From the sequence record OR896838.1: DNA of 44,740 nt, one strand, 5' to 3'. Both the position numbers and the translations under genes were made by a program. This document shows, in pieces, positions 4,453 to 42,660 of the stretch (position 1 is the stretch's first letter; each line of letters starts with the position of its first letter). The notes beneath the pieces were generated by a model that was given only the letters and a program-made list of their open reading frames with translations, was not told where the DNA came from and did no database searches. The DNA comes from Escherichia phage McMelon.

Positions 4453-5217
4453 TTAGCGCGGAATACCGCAGATTTCGTTTAACGTCTTAACATCCAGCGC
4501 CACCGCCGTGGATTTAGGCTTGTCCGGGTATGGAATGAACTGTTCCACTTCAGGCCACGCCTTGATCAGCTTCTTATCGGTATTGTGCATATCCAGCACG
4601 CCGGTAACGGTTAGTTTGAACGCGTCATACTTAGCTCGCAACTCGCGTCGGGCCTTGTCATTACGGTCCAGGCGCTTGCAGAAGTCGTGATTCGCCGGGT
4701 AGTCTATACGACCGCGTGGCATATATATCGGCAGCGCTTTTCCGTCATCGTCCAATTCGCACACTGACGCTAACAAAATTTCCTCACACCCAGGCACAAT
4801 ATCGCCGAGATCGGGAGACAGCTTATTCATGTATTTATATTCCCAGTATCCGCGATGTACTCGGAATCGGTGTCCGTCTCCGCTCAATGACACGGTACGG
4901 ACGTTTCCGCCGGCGTTGATTTCGAAAGTGGCGTCATAAACGCGGCCGATACCATACGGGCGGTCAGCGTTATAACTATACGTCGCCTTGTTGGTGTATA
5001 CGCTTACTCCGTACATCTGCGACGGGTCATCGCCGATTGCTTTAATGCGCGCGAGTAGCTCGGCGAAAGTGCGAATGCCTTCCGGCATACAGTCCAGCGT
5101 AATGGCGTACGCAAGGTCGCGAGAGTCCATCATGATGGATTTGGCTTCGGTCGCGATTTCATGGTCGCGCAGGATGTTAGCCAGAATCTGGTTTTTAATG
5201 TCTTTTGTCAGTCTCAT
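4453..5217 (-). CDS. hypothetical protein (orphan reverse-strand gene in structural module)
   Basis: 254 aa from the internal ATG (MRLTKD...) with RBS GAGGA 8 nt upstream; the longer track ORF upstream is an S/A/R-rich antisense shadow of the scaffold gene; no recognisable domain. Confidence 0.55.
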   Translation of the reverse strand: MRLTKDIKNQILANILRDHEIATEAKSIMMDSRDLAYAITLDCMPEGIRTFAELLARIKAIGDDPSQMYGVSVYTNKATYSYNADRPYGIGRVYDATFEINAGGNVRTVSLSGDGHRFRVHRGYWEYKYMNKLSPDLGDIVPGCEEILLASVCELDDDGKALPIYMPRGRIDYPANHDFCKRLDRNDKARRELRAKYDAFKLTVTGVLDMHNTDKKLIKAWPEVEQFIPYPDKPKSTAVALDVKTLNEICGIPR

Positions 5218-10151: not shown

Positions 10152-10514
10152 ATGGCTAAAGCACCACTCTTCACACTTGACCCTAAGCCAACCTTTAAGC
10201 TGCCGATTGAGATCCCGCGCCCTGGTGAGAACGAACCAGGCAAGATGACGTTTACCGTACGCCACCGCCCGATCGACGAGTTTTCGCAGACCATGCAGGA
10301 CACCGAACGCAAGCTGTCGGAATATGACGACAATGACCCGGACGGCTTTAACGTTATGGTCGAGGCCATCATGCACGTCGCAGAAGGCTGGAATCTGCCG
10401 GACGAATTTAACGCGGAGAACGTCCGCCGCCTGGTGGTCAACTATCCACGCGCGTTCGGTGTGTTCCACACGTCGTACTATCTCGAACTGATGGGGTTGC
10501 GTGAAAAAAACTAA
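10152..10514 (+). CDS. tail assembly chaperone (lambda G-like)
   Basis: 120 aa between major tail protein and tape measure; ends with slippery A AAA AAC directly before the stop. Confidence 0.7.
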   Translation: MAKAPLFTLDPKPTFKLPIEIPRPGENEPGKMTFTVRHRPIDEFSQTMQDTERKLSEYDDNDPDGFNVMVEAIMHVAEGWNLPDEFNAENVRRLVVNYPRAFGVFHTSYYLELMGLREKN

Positions 10515-10828
10515 TTGAGGCGGCGCGACGCTTTTATGGCCCGCCGCCACCCTCCGAAGATTTAGCCGCAAGTTTATGGGGCGCGGCCCCCGAAGATGTT
10601 TGTCCACCTGTTGCGCTGTGGCCCGACAACGCGAAGGTAGTCGCAGTCTTCACAGATTGCTCCACGCAATGGCGCACCGGATTTGGTGGCGCATACGGCA
10701 TCGACTACGGCGTGCTGGAGTGGTTATTTAAGATGCACGGTATCGAAAACGAACAGCGCGCGTTTAAAGATATCAAGCTAATGGAACGAATAGCGCTTGA
10801 TGAGATGGCGCAGCAGAACCCCGCATAA
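10505..10828 (+). CDS. tail assembly chaperone frameshift extension (lambda T-like; made as fusion with 10152..10510 by -1 frameshift)
   Basis: Heptamer A AAA AAC at 10505..10511 followed by TAA; the -1 frame stays open about 105 codons to TAA at 10826..10828; canonical G/GT arrangement. Confidence 0.5.
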   Translation, partial: KKLIEAARRFYGPPPPSEDLAASLWGAAPEDVCPPVALWPDNAKVVAVFTDCSTQWRTGFGGAYGIDYGVLEWLFKMHGIENEQRAFKDIKLMERIALDEMAQQNPA

Positions 10829-11140
10829 TGAAGCGGGACGTCCCGCTTTGTCCCGCCCTGTAAAACCGCATATCTAATCACTTTCATTGCATAAACTCAA
10901 AGCGGGACAGGCGGGACGTCCCGTTTTGTCCCACCCATGAAATGTGCATACCTATTCGAATTTCGTGCATAAAACAAGCGGGACAGAAAGCGGGACAGAC
11001 AAGGGGCGGGACAAAGCGGGACAGCACCCCGTCCCCGCCAGTGCTGCCGCGGTTTTCAGCCGATCGGGACAAGCGGGACAAAGCCCAGTCTTTCAGACTA
11101 GACGGGGGTCAACGGCCCCCCTCGTCTGAGACTGAATAAG
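10829..11140. repeat. GCGGGACA iteron / palindrome array ending in GC-rich hairpin (copy A)
   Basis: At least 10 copies of GCGGGAC or its complement, including perfect palindrome GCGGGACGTCCCGC (10833..10846); terminal hairpin GACGGGGGTCAACGGCCCCCCTCGTC; about 150 bp nearly identical to 39030..39210. Confidence 0.7.
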
Positions 11141-11157: not shown

Positions 11158-11166
11158 TGATACAAT
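11158..11166 (+). promoter_or_regulatory. candidate extended -10 promoter (TGaTACAAT) upstream of tape measure gene
   Basis: TGnTACAAT-type element about 37 nt upstream of the TMP start; no good -35. Confidence 0.3.
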
Positions 11167-11202: not shown

Positions 11203-13845
11203 ATGGCAGATCAAGCAGCAGGCATCACGCTGAAGGCTGATGTTGCACAAATCAGAACGGCAAATACTGTGCTGGACTCCTTCGCACAGAAATCCGAGAA
11301 CACAGAAAACAAGGTTAAGAAATTAAACGACACCCTCGGCAAATCCAAAAAGGTGACGAGTGACGCCGCTGGCGGAATGGAAAAGCTGGCAAACGAATCG
11401 CAGCGCGCCGCCGACGGAATGACGAAACAGGAGCGACTCGCCAACCGGTTAGGCATGTCGACCAAAAACCTGGGCTTTGCCTCGCGTAACGCCGCATTCC
11501 AGTTACAGGATATTGCGGTAACGCTTGAGATGGGTATGCCGGTGCACCGCGTTATGCTTCAGCAGTTACCGCAGCTTACTGGGGCGTTCGGTGGATTTGG
11601 TAACACGCTGCGTTATGTTGCGGGCGTCCTCGGTCCGGTAGGGATCGGCATTGCAGCACTAACGGCAACGTTAGGCGTAGGGGTGGCAATTACGTCCCGC
11701 GCAGAGAACCAGGTCGCAGCGCTTAACAAGACGCTGGCGCTGTCAGGTAACATTTCCGGCCTCACTGCAAACCAGATCCTGGTGCTATCCGAGAACGCCG
11801 AGCGCATGGGCGGATCATTCCGCAAGACGCGAGACACAATCCAGTCGCTGGCGGCGGCGGGTGTGAAAGCGGGTGCGGACTTCGGCACGCTGGCGAAAGT
11901 GGTGAATGACTTTGCGAAGGTGTCCAGCCAGCCGATCGAGGATGTGGTCGCGGCGGTGGCGAAGTTGTCCACTGACCCGGTAGGCGGCTTGCGAGCATTG
12001 GCTGATAAGTATCACGTCGTAAACGAAGCGCAGATCCAGCAGGTGCAGTCGCTTGTGGATATGGGTCGCGAGACCGACGCGGTTGCGTTGGCTAACAAAA
12101 CCGCCGCAGCGTCGTTTACGACTATGACCAACGATATTAAGTCCAACATGGGTACGCTTGAGCGTTCGATGAACGTCGTCACATCGGCAGCTAAATCTAT
12201 GTGGGACGCTATCCTGGATGTGGGCCGCGCGCAGTCCTCCAATGAGTCAGAGATGAAAGCGCGCGAATCACTCCAGCGCATGACAACGGCTTACTATGCC
12301 GAGATGAAAGCGGTAAACGCTGCCGGTGGAGTGATGACCGAAGCGCAGAAAGCACGTATTAACATGCTTTACAGCGAACTGGTCGCACAGGAAAAAGTAG
12401 TGGCATCGCTCACCCTGCGTAACCGCGCAGAGCGAGACAACGCCCGCGCCGCGGACGAATCAGCGAAGGCGAACGAGGAGGCCAACCGCACCGCCCGTGA
12501 CCGCGCCGCGTTCGAGAAGGAATACGCCACCAACGCTAAGAAGCGCGCAGACGAGATCGCCCGCCTCAATTTGCTGAATAAGCGCGGCGTTATTGACGAG
12601 AAAGAGCTTGCTGAGGCGGTTAAGCAGGTAAACGAGCGTTACAAAGACCCGGCCCCGAAGAAGGCTGCGGCTGTTCGCGTGGATGCCGGTATGAAAATGC
12701 TGGAAGTCGCACGGAGCGAACTGGCACAGCTTCGGGAATCAGGCAAGCAGATCGAAGCCAACGCATCGACGCAGACCCGCACGCAACGCGCTCAAGCGGC
12801 CTTAAACAAGCTGATCGCGGATAATGAGCAGTTAATCGCCGCAAGCAAAGAAAGGGCGCTAACGGCAGCGGAAAAGCAGCAGATGGCAGAATTCGGACGC
12901 GTGAAGGAAGTGCGCGAGCAGATCGTCGAAGAAGCCAAATTGCTGGACGCGAAAGAGAAACAGGTCAAGGCGCACGCGCAGATCGACGCCTTCGTTAAGA
13001 ACCAGAACGCCGAGCTAAAAGCCACCGCGGCGGGCTATGCGCTTTCCACTCGCGAAGCGGCTAACCTGCGTGAAGAATTGCAGCTGATTGACCGCCTTAA
13101 GCGGGTGGGTGCTAGCGATACCGATATTGATCTGGCGGTGTCTAAGCTGCGCGAAGTGCAGGAAGCACAGACCGGTGCTAACGCCTCGCTATGGGATGGC
13201 TTCAGCCGCGGGCTTAAGGATAGCGTTGATGAAATGGGTACCGGCTATACGCAGATGACGTCACTCACAAAATTCACGTTCGGCGCCATGCAGGACACGA
13301 TGAACGAGTTTTTTGAGACTGGCAAGCTGAACGCAAAGGATATGGTTAAGTCCATCCTGAGCGAATTAATCAAGCTGGCTACATCGCAGGCGTTCAAGTC
13401 CATCGTTAGCGCTTTCGGCGGCGACGGCGGCAAAAACGGATTGTTCGGCGCTATCTTCTCTGGCCTCACTAAGAATGCGGACGGCGGAGCGTACGCAGGA
13501 GGCAATCTCGCGGCCTATTCGGGGAAAGTGGTAAGCCAGCCAACCTTTTTCAGTTATGGCGTTCAGGCGTTCGCTAAGGGCGCAGGATTGATGGGTGAGG
13601 CCGGACCAGAGGCCATCATGCCACTGAAGCGCGGCCCCGACGGCAAACTTGGAGTCGCCGCTGCCGGTGTAGGCGGGGGGATGATTGTAACGACCAACGT
13701 TAACATGGGGACCGGTAAGACGGATACCAGTGTTAGCGGACCAGACCCGCGCACCGCGCAGGCGTTCGGGAAGCAAATCACCGAGTCGGTCAAGGCCGAG
13801 ATCGTGAAGGCGACGAAACCGGGTGGTGTACTTTACAAACGATGA
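11203..13845 (+). CDS. tail tape measure protein
   Basis: 880 aa, long helical A/K/E-rich regions and Gly-rich C-terminal part; follows the G/GT chaperone. Confidence 0.85.
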   Translation: MADQAAGITLKADVAQIRTANTVLDSFAQKSENTENKVKKLNDTLGKSKKVTSDAAGGMEKLANESQRAADGMTKQERLANRLGMSTKNLGFASRNAAFQLQDIAVTLEMGMPVHRVMLQQLPQLTGAFGGFGNTLRYVAGVLGPVGIGIAALTATLGVGVAITSRAENQVAALNKTLALSGNISGLTANQILVLSENAERMGGSFRKTRDTIQSLAAAGVKAGADFGTLAKVVNDFAKVSSQPIEDVVAAVAKLSTDPVGGLRALADKYHVVNEAQIQQVQSLVDMGRETDAVALANKTAAASFTTMTNDIKSNMGTLERSMNVVTSAAKSMWDAILDVGRAQSSNESEMKARESLQRMTTAYYAEMKAVNAAGGVMTEAQKARINMLYSELVAQEKVVASLTLRNRAERDNARAADESAKANEEANRTARDRAAFEKEYATNAKKRADEIARLNLLNKRGVIDEKELAEAVKQVNERYKDPAPKKAAAVRVDAGMKMLEVARSELAQLRESGKQIEANASTQTRTQRAQAALNKLIADNEQLIAASKERALTAAEKQQMAEFGRVKEVREQIVEEAKLLDAKEKQVKAHAQIDAFVKNQNAELKATAAGYALSTREAANLREELQLIDRLKRVGASDTDIDLAVSKLREVQEAQTGANASLWDGFSRGLKDSVDEMGTGYTQMTSLTKFTFGAMQDTMNEFFETGKLNAKDMVKSILSELIKLATSQAFKSIVSAFGGDGGKNGLFGAIFSGLTKNADGGAYAGGNLAAYSGKVVSQPTFFSYGVQAFAKGAGLMGEAGPEAIMPLKRGPDGKLGVAAAGVGGGMIVTTNVNMGTGKTDTSVSGPDPRTAQAFGKQITESVKAEIVKATKPGGVLYKR

Positions 13846-24402: not shown

Positions 24403-24423
24403 GGGGAGGCAGTATTGCCTCCC
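24403..24423 (-). promoter_or_regulatory. conserved intergenic stem-loop element (copy 2)
   Basis: GGGAGGCAGTATTGCCTCCC with flanking CGATGTGGTT; near-identical copy at 24729..24748; lies immediately upstream of RBS of 23832..24386. Confidence 0.45.
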
Positions 24424-24437
24424 GATGTGGTTGTGTG

Positions 24438-24707
24438 TTATTTCTTGGCCCACTCCAGAGTTTTACACTCGTAGTCTTCTTCGGCCTGGCTGAGCACACA
24501 CGTCATCATGTGCTCCGCATTGTCAAATCCGCTGGATTTAGCGTATTTATCTGCTCCTCCAACCTCTGCAATCTCGGCGTTTAGCGCCTCTACAGAATGC
24601 AGTTCGATATTATTAAGATAAGGGCTTGAAACGCCTTCTTTGTCTTCAATCATTGACCAGAATGCGTTGATTTTGTTGTCCAGGTCCGCACTAATGAATT
24701 GTTTCAT
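24438..24707 (-). CDS. hypothetical protein
   Basis: 89 aa from internal ATG with RBS AGGTGA; acidic. Confidence 0.45.
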   Translation of the reverse strand: MKQFISADLDNKINAFWSMIEDKEGVSSPYLNNIELHSVEALNAEIAEVGGADKYAKSSGFDNAEHMMTCVLSQAEEDYECKTLEWAKK

Positions 24708-24728
24708 AATATTCACCTTTTTGTTGCG

Positions 24729-24748
24729 GGAGGCGGTATTGCCTCCCG
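24729..24748 (-). promoter_or_regulatory. conserved intergenic stem-loop element (copy 1)
   Basis: GGGAGGCGGTATTGCCTCCC; directly downstream of the predicted start site of the 24757..24785 promoter. Confidence 0.45.
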
Positions 24749-24756
24749 ATGTGGTT

Positions 24757-24785
24757 AATATAGTTGGTTGCATTATTGGTTGCAA
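24757..24785 (-). promoter_or_regulatory. sigma70-like promoter (TTGCAA-17-TATATT)
   Basis: Minus-strand TTGCAA, 17-nt spacer containing AATGCAACCAA, then TATATT; same family as 5247, 26426 and 39364. Confidence 0.45.
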
Positions 24786-32378: not shown

Positions 32379-33158
32379 TTAACGGCGGCGACGTTTACGT
32401 GGCGCTTCGTCTTCGTCGTCGTCCTCATCTTCGTCATCGCGTGGCTTACGACGTTTGCGAGGTTTTTCATCTTCCTCATCGTCGTCGTCATCGCGGCGCT
32501 TGGATTTCTTGGACTTGCGCGGCTTGTCATCTTCATCATCGTCATCACGACGTTTTGACTTTTTGGACTTGCGCGGTGCTTCGTCTTCGTCGTTGTCCAG
32601 GTCTTCATCGGAGCAAGACGACCCGCCACCTCCGAAAGCTTCGCCGTCTTCACGGAATCGCAGACCCAGCAAGCCAGCCCCGAGACCCTTGCCGTTGGTA
32701 TTGTTCCACGCCCAAATATCCAGGGACACATTGCAATAACAACCGGAGTAGATCTCCTGGCCTTCGATCTCGTCGCCTTCTACGGTCAGACCTTGTTCCG
32801 TCTGCTTCTCTCCGAGTGACGTTTGAATGATCGGCTGTTTGAACGATTTGGCGTTGATGTACAACATGCCTTCGAATTCTTCGGTTACTTCGTCGCGCTC
32901 GTCACCGTCGCGAACTGCGCATTCCTTAGAATCCTGGGCGTAGTGGCGGTCCATCCACTTATCGGCATTCTTCTCGGATTTCAGCTTATCGGTGAGCACT
33001 GCGCGCGCTGCCGCTTCCACTTTGTCCACCTGCGGATCTTCTTTATCCAGAAGAATAACGGCACGGTATGCCGGTTTTTGACCATCCTGTTTAGGGGTAT
33101 CACGTTCCCAAATTTTAAGGAAGCATACGCGCACATTTTTCAGGTTGACTTTAGCCAT
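32379..33158 (-). CDS. single-stranded DNA-binding protein (T7 gp2.5 / DUF2815-like) with C-terminal acidic/basic repeat tail
   Basis: N-terminus MAKVNLKNVRVCF typical of gp2.5-like SSBs; C-terminus has about 3 tandem repeats of KPRKSKKSKRRDDDD(E/D) encoded by about 60-bp DNA repeats. Confidence 0.55.
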   Translation of the reverse strand: MAKVNLKNVRVCFLKIWERDTPKQDGQKPAYRAVILLDKEDPQVDKVEAAARAVLTDKLKSEKNADKWMDRHYAQDSKECAVRDGDERDEVTEEFEGMLYINAKSFKQPIIQTSLGEKQTEQGLTVEGDEIEGQEIYSGCYCNVSLDIWAWNNTNGKGLGAGLLGLRFREDGEAFGGGGSSCSDEDLDNDEDEAPRKSKKSKRRDDDDEDDKPRKSKKSKRRDDDDDEEDEKPRKRRKPRDDEDEDDDEDEAPRKRRRR

Positions 33159-35369: not shown

Positions 35370-35879
35370 TTAATCTTCCAGTTCGAAATAGGTTTCGACG
35401 ATTTCTTTTAAATCTTTGTGGAAGTCTTCGACGTCGTCGTCTTCCAGCTTGGCGATTGATTTGATCTCGAACGCTTCCAGCAGGTCGTCAAATTCGTCGT
35501 TAGCATCGTCGTCATCGCCACCGGCGATAATCGCGGCGTACTGCTTGATCTCGTCGCGCATCTCTGCCAGCGGATCGGCATCTTTCTTCCCTTTGCCTTT
35601 CGCCGGAGCTTTTTTACCCTTCGCCGGTTTTTCGTCTTCGGCTTCTTCATCGTCGTCATCTTCTACGACTTCTTTTTTGGCCTTACCTTTAGCCGGGGAT
35701 TTTTTAGATTTAGCCGGTTTTTCGTCATCGTCGTCATCTTCGACAACTTCTTTTTTGGCCTTAGACGGCTTCTTATCTTCCTGTTTACCAACGGCAGCGC
35801 CAACGGTTTCATAATGCTTTGCAATGGTTTCCAGTGCTACTACGCCGCGAGTGATCAGGTTTACGATTTGCTCAAACAT
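35370..35879 (-). CDS. highly charged repeat protein (alternating poly-Lys and poly-Asp/Glu blocks)
   Basis: 170 aa from ATG with GGAGA RBS; internal tandem repeats KKEVVEDDDDxEKPAKxKKxPAKGK; the track ORF extends to 36059 but that region looks like a 5' leader. Confidence 0.5.
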   Translation of the reverse strand: MFEQIVNLITRGVVALETIAKHYETVGAAVGKQEDKKPSKAKKEVVEDDDDDEKPAKSKKSPAKGKAKKEVVEDDDDEEAEDEKPAKGKKAPAKGKGKKDADPLAEMRDEIKQYAAIIAGGDDDDANDEFDDLLEAFEIKSIAKLEDDDVEDFHKDLKEIVETYFELED

Positions 35880-36281: not shown

Positions 36282-36611
36282 ATGAATGTAAACGACGCAA
36301 TCGAAATGTTAACGAAGACTGTTTGCAGTGAGACAAGCCGGTCGTGGGCATACACCGATGCCGTGGGGGCTGTGTTATTTGAAATCGAACGACTGCGGCT
36401 TACCGAAAAAGAATTGCGCGCCAGGCTGGAACTACTCAACGGTACAGCAGCAAGCAAGCTGCAAAAACACAATGAAGAAATGGAAGAATACAAAAAGCAG
36501 GTTATCCGTTTGCGCGCCGAGGGTAAATCATGGGCGATGATTGCCGAGTTGACCGGGATTAATCAGAGCACAGTGCGCTCCTGGGTACGCAATAATAAAA
36601 CTTCTAAGTAA
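36282..36611 (+). CDS. HTH DNA-binding protein (putative transcriptional regulator)
   Basis: 109 aa; helical N-terminus; C-terminal helix-turn-helix SWAMIAELTGINQSTVRSWV; first gene of rightward operon. Confidence 0.6.
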   Translation: MNVNDAIEMLTKTVCSETSRSWAYTDAVGAVLFEIERLRLTEKELRARLELLNGTAASKLQKHNEEMEEYKKQVIRLRAEGKSWAMIAELTGINQSTVRSWVRNNKTSK

Positions 36612-36621
36612 GGCCACGGCA

Positions 36622-38886
36622 ATGAGCTTGATTAAATTCGCTGTAACAAAACCCGCTAAAAAAGGCGAAAAAGCCAGGGCGGAAAACTTCCAGATGACGA
36701 CCGATGAGTTTTTCGAATTTATCAAAGATGCGAAAGAAATCTCCTCGGTGCATATCAACAAGACGGAAGATAGAGCCGAGTATGCGCGCCGCAAGCGTAA
36801 GGCCGATGGCATCGTGGCGTATACCAGTGACGGATTGCGTCGTAAGACCAGTGCGGTGGACCGCTCGATCCTGTTCTTTGATATTGACCGCACCGACACC
36901 CGCACCCTGCGCCGCTGCCGTAAGGCGTTCATCGACGCGGGACTGGAACATGTATTTCACACCACAACCGGCGACCGCCACCCGCTGAAAGGTGGCACGC
37001 GTTGCGCTCGTTTCCTGGTGCTCACCGACAAGCCTGTACCGGCGGAAGACCTGGGCCGCGTACAGTATGCACTGTTACACCAACTGGGCCTGTCAGATGT
37101 GGACTTCGATGATTGTACGAAAGACACAAACCGCCTTATGTACCTGCCACACCAGCAGTCCGTTGTTAAGTGTCACTACGGCAAACGTGCCCGCGTCCGT
37201 CGTCTGCTTCGCCTGGCGGATAAGCTGGGAGTGGAAAAAGAGGAAGTACGACGCGAACTGACCCAGGGCGATGACGGCGTTGCGGACGGTATTCTGGATT
37301 GGTGCTTCCAGGCAGGATTCGAACCGCTGTCGTCCGGTCGTGGCTATGAAGTGCCATGCCCGAACGAACATCTGCACAGTGGTGAAGGGTCCACCGCTAT
37401 CATGGTTAAGGATGGCGAGATCCGTTTCAAGTGTATGCACACCGGCAACGAGTGCTGTTCCGAACTGAACAGACACCAGCACCTGGCGCTACGTCTTATC
37501 GGGATCCCGGACCACTTGAACGTCGAACCGCACAACATGTCACGTAAGCAAATCGCCGCCATCCTTCCGGGACTGGACGATGAGGAAGTGGAATCGTGCT
37601 ATGAACATATCGTTGATGCGGTCGGAGACGGCGACGAGTACGGCGGATGTACAGATGCAGACCTGGACAACGAGCCGGTTGCGCTGTTCAGTAAGCACGA
37701 CCCGATCATCGAGGGGCTGATTAACTTCAAATCGACCTGGTATCTTGCTGGCGGGTCGAACATCGGTAAATCGTTCTACGTGCTGGGCCAGATGGCGTCA
37801 GTATCTGCCGGTATTCCGTTCGGCGGCGCGAAGGTCGTCCAGTGCCACAACTTCTATTTCGACGCGGAAGGTGGTGAAGCCTCCAACCAGCGTAAGGAAG
37901 CATTGCAGATCAAATATGAGCACGACCTGGACAAGCTGCACATTATCGATCTGCAGTCACGCGGCTGGGATATCACCAGCAAATCCGGCTTGCGTGAAGT
38001 TATCAGCTTTATCAACCGCACCGCTAACGGCGAGCCGGTTGGCCTGGTGGCGTTCGACTCACTCAACCAGACTGTCGCGTTGCGGTCAGCCGATGCTAAA
38101 CCGTTCGACGAGAACAACGCCAGCGATATGGGCGAAGTGGTCAAAGCGCTGAAGGCTATTGCGGAAAACACAGGCGGCAGTGCGGGAGTCATCCACCACC
38201 CGGCGAAAGGTGCAAACGGCAGCAGATCTCCCCGCGGGTCCGGCGCGCTGCATGGTGCTGTCGATTCCGCGTTCTTCCTGGAGCAACCGGACGACAATCA
38301 GCCGGGCCAATTGAACCTGTACCATGAGAAGGCACGTAACGGCATCAAGCAAGCGCCGCGCGGCTTCGTTCTGCTTAAGTGCAAGGTTAAGGTGGATCTC
38401 CGCAAGTCAGAGGCGTTCGAATCGCACCAGTCCACCAGCACCGGGCCTGATTTCGGTGATGTGGTTGCAGGATGGGACGTCAAGCCGATCGCATCAACGC
38501 CACGCGACGAGACTCTTTACCTCGTACCTGTCGCCCTGGCACCGTTCGCTATTGAGCAGGCGAAGGCCGCGGGTAAGGCAGCAGTTAAGGAAGAGAACCC
38601 CGCAGGACCTCGCAACGAAAAAGAGAAAGTGCTTTATGCGGCGCTGGAAAAACTGATGGAAGATAACCCGGACCATACCGGATTCAGTAAATCGGCAATC
38701 GTCCGCCAGGCTGGACTTGCGAAAGGTGGCACATCGACGAAGGCAATAGACGATATGGTCGAGCGCGGCGTGCTCGGTTTCTATACAGATCCGCACACCG
38801 GGGCCATCTATGGGTCATCGAATATCGTCATCAAAACGAATATACCCATCACGCTTTCGGCGACCGACGATGATTTAAAAGATTAA
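36622..38886 (+). CDS. DNA primase-polymerase (AEP-type) fused to P-loop ATPase/helicase domain
   Basis: 754 aa; N-terminal acidic motif ILFFDIDR (DxD) typical of prim-pol; central Walker A GGSNIGKS. Confidence 0.8.
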   Translation: MSLIKFAVTKPAKKGEKARAENFQMTTDEFFEFIKDAKEISSVHINKTEDRAEYARRKRKADGIVAYTSDGLRRKTSAVDRSILFFDIDRTDTRTLRRCRKAFIDAGLEHVFHTTTGDRHPLKGGTRCARFLVLTDKPVPAEDLGRVQYALLHQLGLSDVDFDDCTKDTNRLMYLPHQQSVVKCHYGKRARVRRLLRLADKLGVEKEEVRRELTQGDDGVADGILDWCFQAGFEPLSSGRGYEVPCPNEHLHSGEGSTAIMVKDGEIRFKCMHTGNECCSELNRHQHLALRLIGIPDHLNVEPHNMSRKQIAAILPGLDDEEVESCYEHIVDAVGDGDEYGGCTDADLDNEPVALFSKHDPIIEGLINFKSTWYLAGGSNIGKSFYVLGQMASVSAGIPFGGAKVVQCHNFYFDAEGGEASNQRKEALQIKYEHDLDKLHIIDLQSRGWDITSKSGLREVISFINRTANGEPVGLVAFDSLNQTVALRSADAKPFDENNASDMGEVVKALKAIAENTGGSAGVIHHPAKGANGSRSPRGSGALHGAVDSAFFLEQPDDNQPGQLNLYHEKARNGIKQAPRGFVLLKCKVKVDLRKSEAFESHQSTSTGPDFGDVVAGWDVKPIASTPRDETLYLVPVALAPFAIEQAKAAGKAAVKEENPAGPRNEKEKVLYAALEKLMEDNPDHTGFSKSAIVRQAGLAKGGTSTKAIDDMVERGVLGFYTDPHTGAIYGSSNIVIKTNIPITLSATDDDLKD

Positions 38887-38961
38887 ATTCTGCGCGCATT
38901 GGTTGCCGATATGGGAATTCCCATATCGTTAGAAGATTAAATTTTGCGCGCATTGGTTGCC
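38876..38961. repeat. direct repeat - 22-bp perfect palindrome - direct repeat structure (candidate origin/operator)
   Basis: 31-bp direct repeats A(A/G)AAGATTAAATT(C/T)TGCGCGCATTGGTTGCC at 38876..38907 and 38930..38961 flanking CGATATGGGAATTCCCATATCG (38907..38928); third ATTGGTTGCC at 38986..38996. Confidence 0.6.
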
Positions 38962-39029
38962 ATTTTGAGTGTTTTTATCTGGTCGTATTGGTTGCCGTGT
39001 AGTGTAAATATAGTGAATAGTTATGCAGT

Positions 39030-39210
39030 TTTATTGCATAAAGCAAGCGGGACAAAAAGCGGGACAAACAAGGGGCGGGACAAAGCGGGACAGCACCCCT
39101 GTCCCGCCCCGGATGACGCGGCTTCCAGAGGAGCGGGACAGGCGGGACAACTCCCAGTCTTTCAGACTAGACGGGGGTCAATGGCCCCCCTCGTCTGAGA
39201 CTGAATAAAA
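39030..39210. repeat. GCGGGACA iteron / palindrome array ending in GC-rich hairpin (copy B)
   Basis: Near-identical to 10970..11140: same order of GCGGGACA units, GGCGGGAC...GTCCCGCC inverted repeat and terminal hairpin (loop differs by one base). Confidence 0.7.
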
Positions 39211-39363
39211 TCCGGGTATTGCAAAATACACGGCAGCATGATGCGAATTGCGGTCGTCGATGAACTAGGCAACCAATGCGGGTTGTATTATGCTGAGTGA
39301 AAAATGCGGTTTGCAGTCACAGCAGATAGCGATCAGCTTTTTCATGCGCGTGATTAATATTGG

Positions 39364-39392
39364 TTGCACCCACCCTGGCACCCTGCTATATT
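39364..39392 (+). promoter_or_regulatory. sigma70-like promoter (TTGCAC-17-TATATT) for rightward early ORFs
   Basis: TTGCAC, 17-nt spacer, TATATT, then GGTTGCACACCAACA and RBS GAGGAC; -10 plus downstream 21-mer identical to the 5247..5275 promoter. Confidence 0.5.
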
Positions 39393-39420
39393 GGTTGCAC
39401 ACCAACATGAGGACCGAACA

Positions 39421-42579: not shown

Positions 42580-42660
42580 ATGGCACGTAAAGATATTTGG
42601 GTATTAGCGATCTGGACCACCGCGGCTTTTATCGGCATGGTTATTTGCGAATTGATATAG
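42580..42660 (+). CDS. very small hydrophobic peptide (26 aa)
   Basis: Strong SD AGAGGAG 8 nt before ATG; MARKDIWVLAIWTTAAFIGMVICELI looks like a single TM helix. Confidence 0.25.
   Translation: MARKDIWVLAIWTTAAFIGMVICELI

Follow-up and report, generated by a model that had tools for sequence, protein, structure and literature searches.

The alpha protein of phage P4, which reportedly acts with two cis loci, ori and crr, joins Toprim, D5_N and SF3 domains; its iteron is TGTTCACC, and ori and crr are 4.5 kb apart. The Rep and PriRep proteins of Staphylococcus aureus pathogenicity islands (SaPI) bind iterons of 5-6 nt through a C-terminal winged helix, and six to twelve such iterons lie directly 3' of rep, in opposite orientations around an AT-rich centre (PMC9371898). 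Here we describe two arrays of a 7-8-nt repeat, (A/G)CGGGACA, in Escherichia phage McMelon (OR896838.1). The window, by which we mean the whole stretch of 44,740 nt (~44.7 kb) that was analysed, is the complete genome of a Dhillonvirus (HK578/SO-1-like siphophage of Escherichia/Shigella). In both arrays direct and inverted clusters of the repeat lie beside AT-rich stretches and a conserved hairpin. One array, locus B (39013-39208), starts 148 bp 3' of the stop codon of a gene for a 754-aa primase-helicase; the other, locus A (10829-11140), lies between the stop codon of the tail chaperone frameshift product G/GT and the tape measure gene. We propose, with moderate confidence, that the arrays are iteron-type origin modules that act as DNA, their iterons being bound by the phage primase-helicase.

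Like SaPI and phage-inducible chromosomal islands (PICI), the window encodes a primase-helicase with a C-terminal winged helix (here a predicted one) and carries short iterons just 3' of the gene, 6-12 in those islands and 7-14 here, which point in opposite directions around AT-rich DNA. It differs from them in that the helicase core is AAA_25 (RecA-type) and not SF3 AAA+, the iteron is 7-8 nt long, the array lies 148 bp past the stop codon, a second full copy is present in the tail operon, and binding of the iterons is putative. As in P4, a single multifunctional primase-helicase and putative origin-binding protein of ~750-780 aa is accompanied by two separated cis loci that have a short iteron in common, direct repeats of ~100 nt making up one of the two; the second locus is conserved and is a candidate counterpart of crr. 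The loci of the window are, however, 16.7 or 28 kb apart, against 4.5 kb in P4, and we met the architecture of alpha at only one array (L079, below). For P4 alpha there was no sequence match to a solved chain, and its origin-binding domain was not among the fold hits listed. Since the window's helicase is of the AAA_25 and not the SF3 type, the element would work like those of SaPI and P4 with a helicase from outside the SaPI Rep and P4 alpha families. RSF1010 shares the helicase family (RepA) and an oriV made of iterons, an AT/GC-rich region and priming hairpins (ssi); its iteron binder (RepC), helicase and primase are three separate proteins and its iterons are 20 nt long, unlike here. Finally, the pRN1 origin contains a stem-loop 3' of the primase-helicase gene, and both for pRN1 ORF904 and for Bordetella phage BIP-1 a large stem-loop 3' of a primase-helicase-winged-helix gene, comparable to the arrangement here, is the essential origin element (PMC4234260). 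pRN1 differs in its archaeal host, its SF3 helicase and its lack of iterons, and its replication protein was not seen to bind specifically (PMC4234260).

Two dense clusters of one repeat are duplicated and conserved

Exact copies of GCGGGAC occur 26 times in the whole window, compared with 9.0 +/- 3.0 in shuffled sequences (maximum 16), and 17 of the 26 fall in loci A and B, which jointly make up ~1% of the genome. Ten lie within 10829-11140 and seven within 39047-39148; CGGGACA is distributed alike, and the two loci are the densest clusters among all repeated 7-mers genome-wide. In locus A eight copies are on the + strand (10833, 10902, 10911, 10978, 10990, 11006, 11016 and 11073) and two on the - strand (10840 and 10850), with a further CGGGACA at 11065 and degenerate inverted copies at 10918-10923, 10928-10934 and 11031-11038. 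The tally is 10-14 copies for locus A and 7 for locus B, far more than chance would give.

The loci are linked by a direct repeat of 196 nt (10944-11139 and 39013-39208; 85% ungapped identity), in which the iteron blocks and the hairpin are ~90-100% alike and a 34-nt middle spacer only ~55%. An initial annotation, made from the letters of the sequence, had reported at least ten GCGGGAC copies in both orientations, a perfect palindrome (GCGGGACGTCCCGC, 10833-10846) and a terminal GC-rich hairpin with no clean U-run (11086-11134; no T-run is present), all placed between the chaperone frameshift product and the tape measure gene (G/GT stop 10828; tape measure start 11203), and each of these was recovered here. 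It had also stated that the last 150 bp of locus A recur almost base for base; the duplication is real, but its fidelity was overstated. Locus A additionally holds two tandem 78-bp units (10833-10895 and 10911-10973; 75% identity) that this annotation had missed.

Matches to locus A, at 80-99.7% identity, came from 158 phage records, nearly all of them Escherichia/Shigella Dhillonviruses (top match vB_EcoS-UDS3lw, 99.7%), and both loci were found in 158 of 158 related phage records, at two fixed positions. A search of E. coli (5,426 complete genomes; 20,395 records) gave no match to the element. The idea that it might be a common host repeat unconserved in related phages, which had been named beforehand as the outcome that would count against it, is therefore contradicted twice over. 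Repetitive extragenic palindromic (REP), enterobacterial repetitive intergenic consensus (ERIC) and miniature inverted-repeat transposable (MITE) elements of the host were rejected on the lack of an E. coli copy and on the two fixed phage positions. When the locus was sought through the tape measure gene, only Dhillonviruses were returned.

Conservation was examined in 33 aligned A/B units from 18 genomes (15 gave both loci, three gave locus B only). Across the 33 units, 31 of 49 motif columns are invariant compared with 51 of 148 other columns (Mann-Whitney p = 2e-4), the first base of the motif varying between G and A. The 34-nt spacer is 55% identical between A and B, 89% among A units and 81% among B units. 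Since the iteron blocks are ~90% identical between A and B and the spacer 55%, both copies are kept by selection, or by conversion confined to the functional parts.

In the GenBank record of Sodalis phage SO-1 both places carry a repeat_region feature, 'region A' and 'region B', with a note worded 'direct, inverted and palindromic repeats; sequence similarity ...; possible ...'. Our literature search found no discussion of these regions, no mention of the motif in phages and no description of a Dhillonvirus replication origin, and the Dhillonvirus records that we examined have none annotated. Several public sequences, NC_073077.1 (which ends at 42624, within the hairpin), NC_073059.1 and IMG/VR contig 3300045988_009799 (which begins 96 bp 5' of the tape measure gene), have a record or contig end in locus A; these are most likely assembly breaks at the 196-nt repeat and not physical genome ends. 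MG065648.1 ('Campylobacter phage A144') and records labelled as Acinetobacter or Salmonella phages are Dhillonviruses by sequence. As their chaperone is 99% identical, the hosts given for them are probably mistaken or due to contamination.

The same repeat accompanies replication-initiator genes in other viral contigs

We scanned IMG/VR for two nearby copies of GCGGGACA, which gave at least 120 loci; the counts that follow refer to the matches listed, among which 61 loci and the window carry at least five CGGGACA per 300 bp. Apart from the Dhillonvirus copies, none of the listed loci has DNA similarity to the window, and their GC content ranges from 0.48 to 0.68; CGGGACA is conserved in phages of unrelated hosts. 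The consensus in these arrays is aGCGGGACA, and in the usual array several direct copies precede an inverted pair that encloses a GC palindrome.

A replication-initiator gene is tied to the array at 48 of 57 loci (Dhillonvirus copies lacking the gene being excluded), where the random expectation is ~1.5%, a rough estimate that assumes such a gene in every phage genome. At 26 or more loci a gene for an AAA_25 or D5-type primase-helicase has its 3' end within 0-250 bp of the array, which mostly starts at or just past the stop codon. Twenty-five of those 26 proteins have an AAA_25 core and 600-830 aa and are 22-38% identical to the window helicase (two are Dhillonvirus locus B); their primase modules differ, being either Toprim_3 plus zinc ribbon or Prim-Pol. 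At locus L079 the protein is P4-alpha-like, with Toprim_3, D5_N and SF3 domains. A different primase gene ends at the array at three or more loci, and at 17 or more the array is inside a 235-357-aa gene assigned by PHROG to 'replication initiation O-like' or 'DnaD-like helicase loader'; there it occupies the linker of the initiator, which accordingly codes for SGTAAGQQRDK-like peptides. At least two arrays are inside other replication-initiator genes. The arrays within O-like and DnaD-like genes resemble phage lambda, whose ori is within O; this gene-internal arrangement is not that of the McMelon window, and the lambda iterons are 19-bp palindromes.

No small helix-turn-helix (HTH) partner is conserved beside CGGGACA arrays in the other contigs, and since the genes 5' of the helicase vary from one locus to the next, no neighbour but the helicase itself is constant. 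Of the options offered by the initial annotation, an iteron or protein-binding array fits this association of the motif, in both orientations and at variable spacing, with initiator genes in many unrelated contigs, which further suggests a link, absent from that annotation, between the element, the adjacent primase-helicase and replication.

A scan of bacterial genomes for triple arrays returned mostly simple tandem or coding repeats in high-GC genomes, with ~10 of 120 helicase-adjacent; because simple repeats swamped the scan, we make no claim of domain-wide distribution. Several loci in diverse bacterial genomes (L270, L274, L201, L278 and others) likewise carry CGGGACA as tandem repeats of 7-14-nt period or as coding repeats unrelated to replication genes, and motif-only searches need caution. 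At five loci (L003, L018, L021, L083 and L086) a gp2.5-like single-stranded DNA-binding protein with an acidic ...DDEF/DDEIPF tail is encoded directly 5' of the primase-helicase that precedes the array. At L303 (MW202711.1, ~4800-5200) no array follows the gene of a relative of the IMG/VR helicases; seven copies of ACGTTCA lie within 300 bp inside its repA-like gene, a cluster that may be a gene-internal origin.

The 754-aa protein is an AAA_25 primase-helicase with a predicted winged helix

The primase-helicase gene (36622-38886, + strand) encodes an AAA_25 (RSF1010 RepA-like) core at residues 357-531 and a predicted winged helix at ~666-737. Pfam found AAA_25 only in the protein, and no helicase of the SF3 (D5/AAA+) type; a sequence search of the PDB gave three weak matches, of which the sole helicase was RSF1010 RepA (1G8Y, E = 0.07). 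An AlphaFold model of residues 533-754, built with 38 sequences, had a low overall mean predicted local distance difference test score (pLDDT) of 63.7, within which residues ~666-737 were modelled as helix-helix-helix-strand-strand, a winged-helix-like order, at pLDDT 82-88.

Homologues were obtained with the full-length query; the C-terminus alone gave no match. A homologue of 68% identity has TGCATAAA, five CGGGACA and the same hairpin 3' of its gene. By pattern scans, that sister group has one locus only, and the tail-operon copy appears specific to Dhillonviruses. Homologues at 46-48% identity have different repeats at that position. Kagunavirus St162 (43% identical) has GTGAATAGTTATG and six GGGGAGA at the equivalent place, the sole such cluster in its genome, and no gap 5' of its tape measure gene; Bas74 (34% identical) has no array at that position. 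In a Firmicutes-type lineage whose protein combines PriCT_2, AAA_25 and a C-terminal DeoR-type HTH, the stop codon is followed at once by TGCATAAA-N3-CGGGACA-N5-CGGGACA, an AT-rich palindrome and then TGTCCCG, and a Streptococcus prophage has arrays of AGGACAT/GGGACAT there. As the position of the array is kept across relatives while the repeats differ, the position is ancestral, the motif changing with the protein over larger distances. TGCATAAA, which is common to Dhillonviruses and one Firmicutes-type lineage only, is absent from 22 other helicase-adjacent arrays; it was not upheld as a general origin part, and the single shared lineage could be coincidence.

Both loci combine iterons, AT-rich DNA and a hairpin

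Rightward genes run from ~36.2 kb through the window end/start to ~23.2 kb and leftward genes occupy 23.2-36.1 kb; the terminase genes, at ~44.1 kb through 1.4 kb, are close to neither locus. Locus A occupies the gap between the stop codon (10826-10828) of G/GT, a -1 frameshift product with a slippery A7 at 10504-10510, and the tape measure ATG at 11203. Its iterons are ordered (-> <- <-) AT (-> -> <- <-) AT (-> -> -> -> <-) spacer (-> ->) hairpin, an arrangement in which AT-rich DNA is bracketed by oppositely oriented iterons.

Unit 1 (10833-10856) is the iteron palindrome GCGGGAC/GTCCCGC TTT GTCCCGC (-> <- <-), which as a DNA hairpin has a predicted energy of -8.1 kcal/mol (z = -3.1); most relatives have one additional direct copy upstream. 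It is followed by AT-rich spacer 1 (10857-10901), with TGCATAAA towards its 3' end (10888-10895), and by unit 2 (10902-10934), the iteron palindrome GCGGGACAG GCGGGAC/GTCCCG TTTT GTCCCAC (-> -> <- <-), whose inner hairpin with T4 looks like a weak intrinsic terminator. AT-rich spacer 2 (10935-10977), in which the unit shared by A and B begins, contains GTGCATACCTAT... and TGCATAAA (10966-10973). Next come four direct iterons on the + strand, at 10978, 10990, 11006 and 11016 (spacing 12, 16 and 10), with a degenerate inverted copy, GTCCCCGC, at 11031-11038 (10978-11038 in all), and then the bulk of the locus-specific GC-rich 34-nt spacer (11039-11064); the span tested for this spacer was 11031-11064, of which the first 8 nt are the degenerate inverted copy. 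Two direct iterons, tCGGGACA aGCGGGACA (11065-11080, + strand), precede the conserved, imperfect 49-nt hairpin (11086-11134), whose G5/C5 stem is kept and whose loop is variable among genomes. Folded as DNA it gave -13.4 kcal/mol, with z = -3.4 and -3.8 for the two loci (-3.4 for locus A). An extended -10 promoter-like TGATACAAT (11158-11166, + strand), 37 bp 5' of the tape measure ATG, is invariant across 15 genomes and may be a promoter; given its invariance at this place, the tape measure and distal tail genes could have a promoter of their own.

In locus B a single iteron is inverted, and AT-rich DNA leads into the array. This lead-in (39013-39046) is GTGAATAGTTATGCA-N7-TGCATAAA and includes a hairpin, TTATGCA/TGCATAA (39021-39041). 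Four direct iterons (39047, 39059, 39075 and 39085) and one exact inverted copy (39101-39107) follow on the + strand (39047-39107), and the fourth of the direct copies pairs with the inverted one in the hairpin GCGGGACAG-CACCC-CTGTCCCGC (-11.4 kcal/mol, z = -5.0). Two direct iterons (39133-39149, + strand) and the 49-nt hairpin (39155-39203), which differs from the locus A copy in a single loop base, complete the array.

Small palindromic modules occur in flip/flop orientations among genomes. Over the window (39021-39041) and 17 other genomes, the 7-nt loop between TTATGCA and TGCATAA reads GTTTTAT in 6 genomes, and 9 have ATAAAAC, the exact reverse complement; CGGGACAG-CACCC-CTGTCCCG is elsewhere CGGGACAG-GGGTG-CTGTCCCG (locus A unit 2 in L158-L160 and L165-L167). 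Two direct repeats of 33 nt that are 94% identical (38875-38907 and 38929-38961), each with TTGGTTGCC at its end, bracket a perfect 20-bp palindrome, GATATGGGAATTCCCATATC (38908-38927), just 3' of the helicase stop codon.

Open reading frames (ORFs) of 61-65 aa across the arrays (10942-11139 and 39023-39208) are labelled hypothetical protein in several GenBank records. Of the 33 units, 29 keep the frame open and four have it broken, and an ATG opens it in only 7 of 33 (six A units and the window's locus B), most B units having an internal Met only; in the flip variant of locus B the window's ATG becomes ATG CAA TAA. A coding ORF over the array was rejected on the unconserved start and the broken frames. 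Because the repeats contain no stop codons, the array ORFs are probably artefacts.

A second repeat class is spread over the genome

A different repeat, TTGGTTGC, has 21 copies in the window where 2 are expected, mostly as intergenic pairs 12-31 bp apart and on both strands. Sites include 5241/5254, 24764/24776, 26434/26451, 33215/33231 and 36084, as well as 38899/38953/38988, 39269, 39360/39391 and 42528/42551, and the pair at 39360-39398 brackets a sigma70-like TTGCAC-17-TATATT. The repeat looks like an operator/promoter motif of a phage regulator, for which the HTH_23/Sigma70_r4-like protein encoded at 36282-36611 is a candidate. Related phages have different motifs of the same class (GGCAACCAATTGCA, GCTGCCAAC and ACTCGCAA).

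Elsewhere, a 29-nt repeat (24404-24432 and 24728-24756; 97% identity) with the hairpin GGGAGGCAGTATTGCCTCCC flanks the small leftward ORF 24438-24785, and repeated GTC/GTCATC-rich DNA at 32395-32609 and 35494-35772 (- strand) codes for acidic D/E-rich repeats in two leftward early genes.

A model for origin function and its alternatives

Taken as origin modules, the arrays can be placed in a scheme modelled on the systems described above. Locus B occupies the canonical position, at or near the 3' end of an initiator gene, which locus A does not, and locus B is probably the ancestral origin. The 754-aa primase-helicase would bind the iterons through its winged helix and oligomerise on the 4+2 direct copies and the inverted pairs; the helicase would then melt the adjoining AT-rich DNA that contains TGCATAAA and load itself as a hexamer, as in SaPI Rep/PriRep and P4 alpha. 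Unwinding may let the 49-nt hairpin extrude and offer a site for entry or priming, comparable to an RSF1010 ssi or the pRN1 stem-loop. We infer each of these steps, binding, melting, loading and initiation. Locus A would have been enlarged by two units of palindromic iterons plus AT-rich DNA, and by analogy we infer that it is a genus-specific expanded duplicate that serves as a second origin or as a cis partner like P4 crr. A side effect of the GC palindromes in locus A, with the T-runs that follow them, would probably be to attenuate late transcription after G/GT.

Several observations weigh against this proposal. GC skew along the window follows gene orientation and transcription only and gives no origin signal. 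Locus A is 16.7 kb from the helicase gene and within a late operon, an uncommon setting for an origin, and the array of locus B starts 148 bp after the stop codon, behind the TTGGTTGC repeat class, where most other contigs have 0-50 bp. When hhalign was used to compare the DNA-binding ends of three groups, the Dhillonvirus helicase, the main group of IMG/VR helicases and the O-like initiators, probabilities were 0.2-1.4%, so a shared origin-binding domain is not claimed; one motif is thus common to initiators whose DNA-binding ends have no detectable homology. The small HTH gene 5' of the helicase switches family along with the motif (HTH_23 versus HTH_3), and this co-variation makes its product an alternative binder within this lineage. 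Finally, the IMG/VR loci were collected through the motif itself, and close relatives are among them.

The arrays might instead be transcriptional punctuation, an operator or roadblock for a phage factor such as the HTH protein of 36282-36611 that terminates or attenuates transcription, with re-initiation downstream, at the G/GT-tape measure junction and the early-to-middle boundary. The T3-T4 runs after the inner palindromes, an ARNOLD terminator annotated in phage PTXU06 at the equivalent of 10903-10923, the invariant TGATACAAT 3' of locus A, a sigma70-like promoter 3' of locus B (~39365-39395) and the HTH family that differs among phages with different repeats would all suit such a role. 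We nevertheless consider it unlikely: an in-house scan found no terminator on the + strand in either locus, the long 49-nt hairpin has no T-run, CGGGACA arrays in other phages have no conserved HTH partner, and arrays inside initiator genes are hardly readable as terminators. Moreover, it is TTGGTTGC, spread genome-wide, that behaves as a transcription-factor site, whereas CGGGACA is limited to two loci. Punctuation may be a secondary role of locus A.

Another candidate role for locus A is copy control, in which it would be an iteron bank that sequesters the initiator or handcuffs with locus B, like P1 incA. Both loci have the same iterons, with more in locus A, which arose within the genus, relatives having one locus; but a virulent phage gains little by limiting its own replication, and locus A retains the full origin-like unit, AT-rich stretches and hairpin included, and not iterons alone. 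We judge this explanation improbable.

We give still less credence to the arrays acting as RNA, options that the initial annotation had raised as a structured RNA, a sponge, or a processing or anti-termination element. A transcribed unit of ~170 nt could be a small RNA, a protein sponge (for example for CsrA, via GGA) or a put/nut-like antiterminator, and the unit does contain many GGA triplets, ends in a stable hairpin, is duplicated in two rightward transcription units and is preceded each time by TGCATAAA. However, Rfam gave no match for the element at gathering score, and a tRNA/tmRNA scan found none, so that a tRNA or tmRNA reading was rejected. Folded as RNA from either strand, the 166-nt unit was no more stable than shuffled sequences (z = -1.7 and -1.4), its one robust part being the terminal hairpin, and in an RNAalifold consensus of the 33 units 0 of 28 pairs had a compensatory change, which is weak evidence because the units vary little in sequence. 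Copies of the motif run in both directions, other phages have it within the coding regions of replication genes, and neither a sigma54 nor a strong sigma70 promoter was found 5' of the unit by eye and by promoter scan. A CsrA/RsmA sponge was rejected, the direct repeats not lying in the hairpin loops of predicted folds and the motif being on both strands and conserved in phages whose hosts are unrelated. A pac site or a selfish MITE-type repeat with no replication role, to which several records beginning or ending within locus A and one array near a small terminase gene (L100) might point, can be given almost no weight, since both loci are far from the terminase genes, the record ends are explained by assembly breaks, and the element, at its two fixed positions and with no E. 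coli copy, shows no terminal inverted repeats or target duplications.

Implications for Dhillonviruses and other phages

For Dhillonviruses, the proposal that the arrays are origin modules supplies two precise candidate origin loci and a candidate initiator domain. In ~160 public genomes these regions carry a spurious 'hypothetical protein' or a blank annotation that can now be corrected, and the 196-nt repeat accounts for breaks of some assemblies within the tail genes. Should locus A prove to work as an origin or as a crr-like partner, a late structural operon would, unusually, contain an origin, and the locus would offer an engineering handle for therapeutic-candidate phages, marking sites not to delete and a minimal replicon.

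A bolder and, in our estimation, doubtful extension is that CGGGACA is a widely shared phage origin iteron across at least five initiator architectures, the Dhillonvirus copy being a second origin that works via late transcription. The architectures may comprise AAA_25 fused to Toprim, Prim-Pol or PriCT_2, the P4-alpha-like Toprim-D5-SF3 protein, O/DnaD-like proteins and DUF1376, and the hosts may include Proteobacteria, Acidobacteria and (by protein similarity) Firmicutes. If this were true, it would imply either a mobile cassette of origin-binding domain plus origin or a common factor that reads the motif, and genome amplification would be tied to virion production through a late-operon origin that late transcription fires or activates. 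The same 7-nt iteron beside very different initiators raises the question of how phages inherit and exchange origin specificity.

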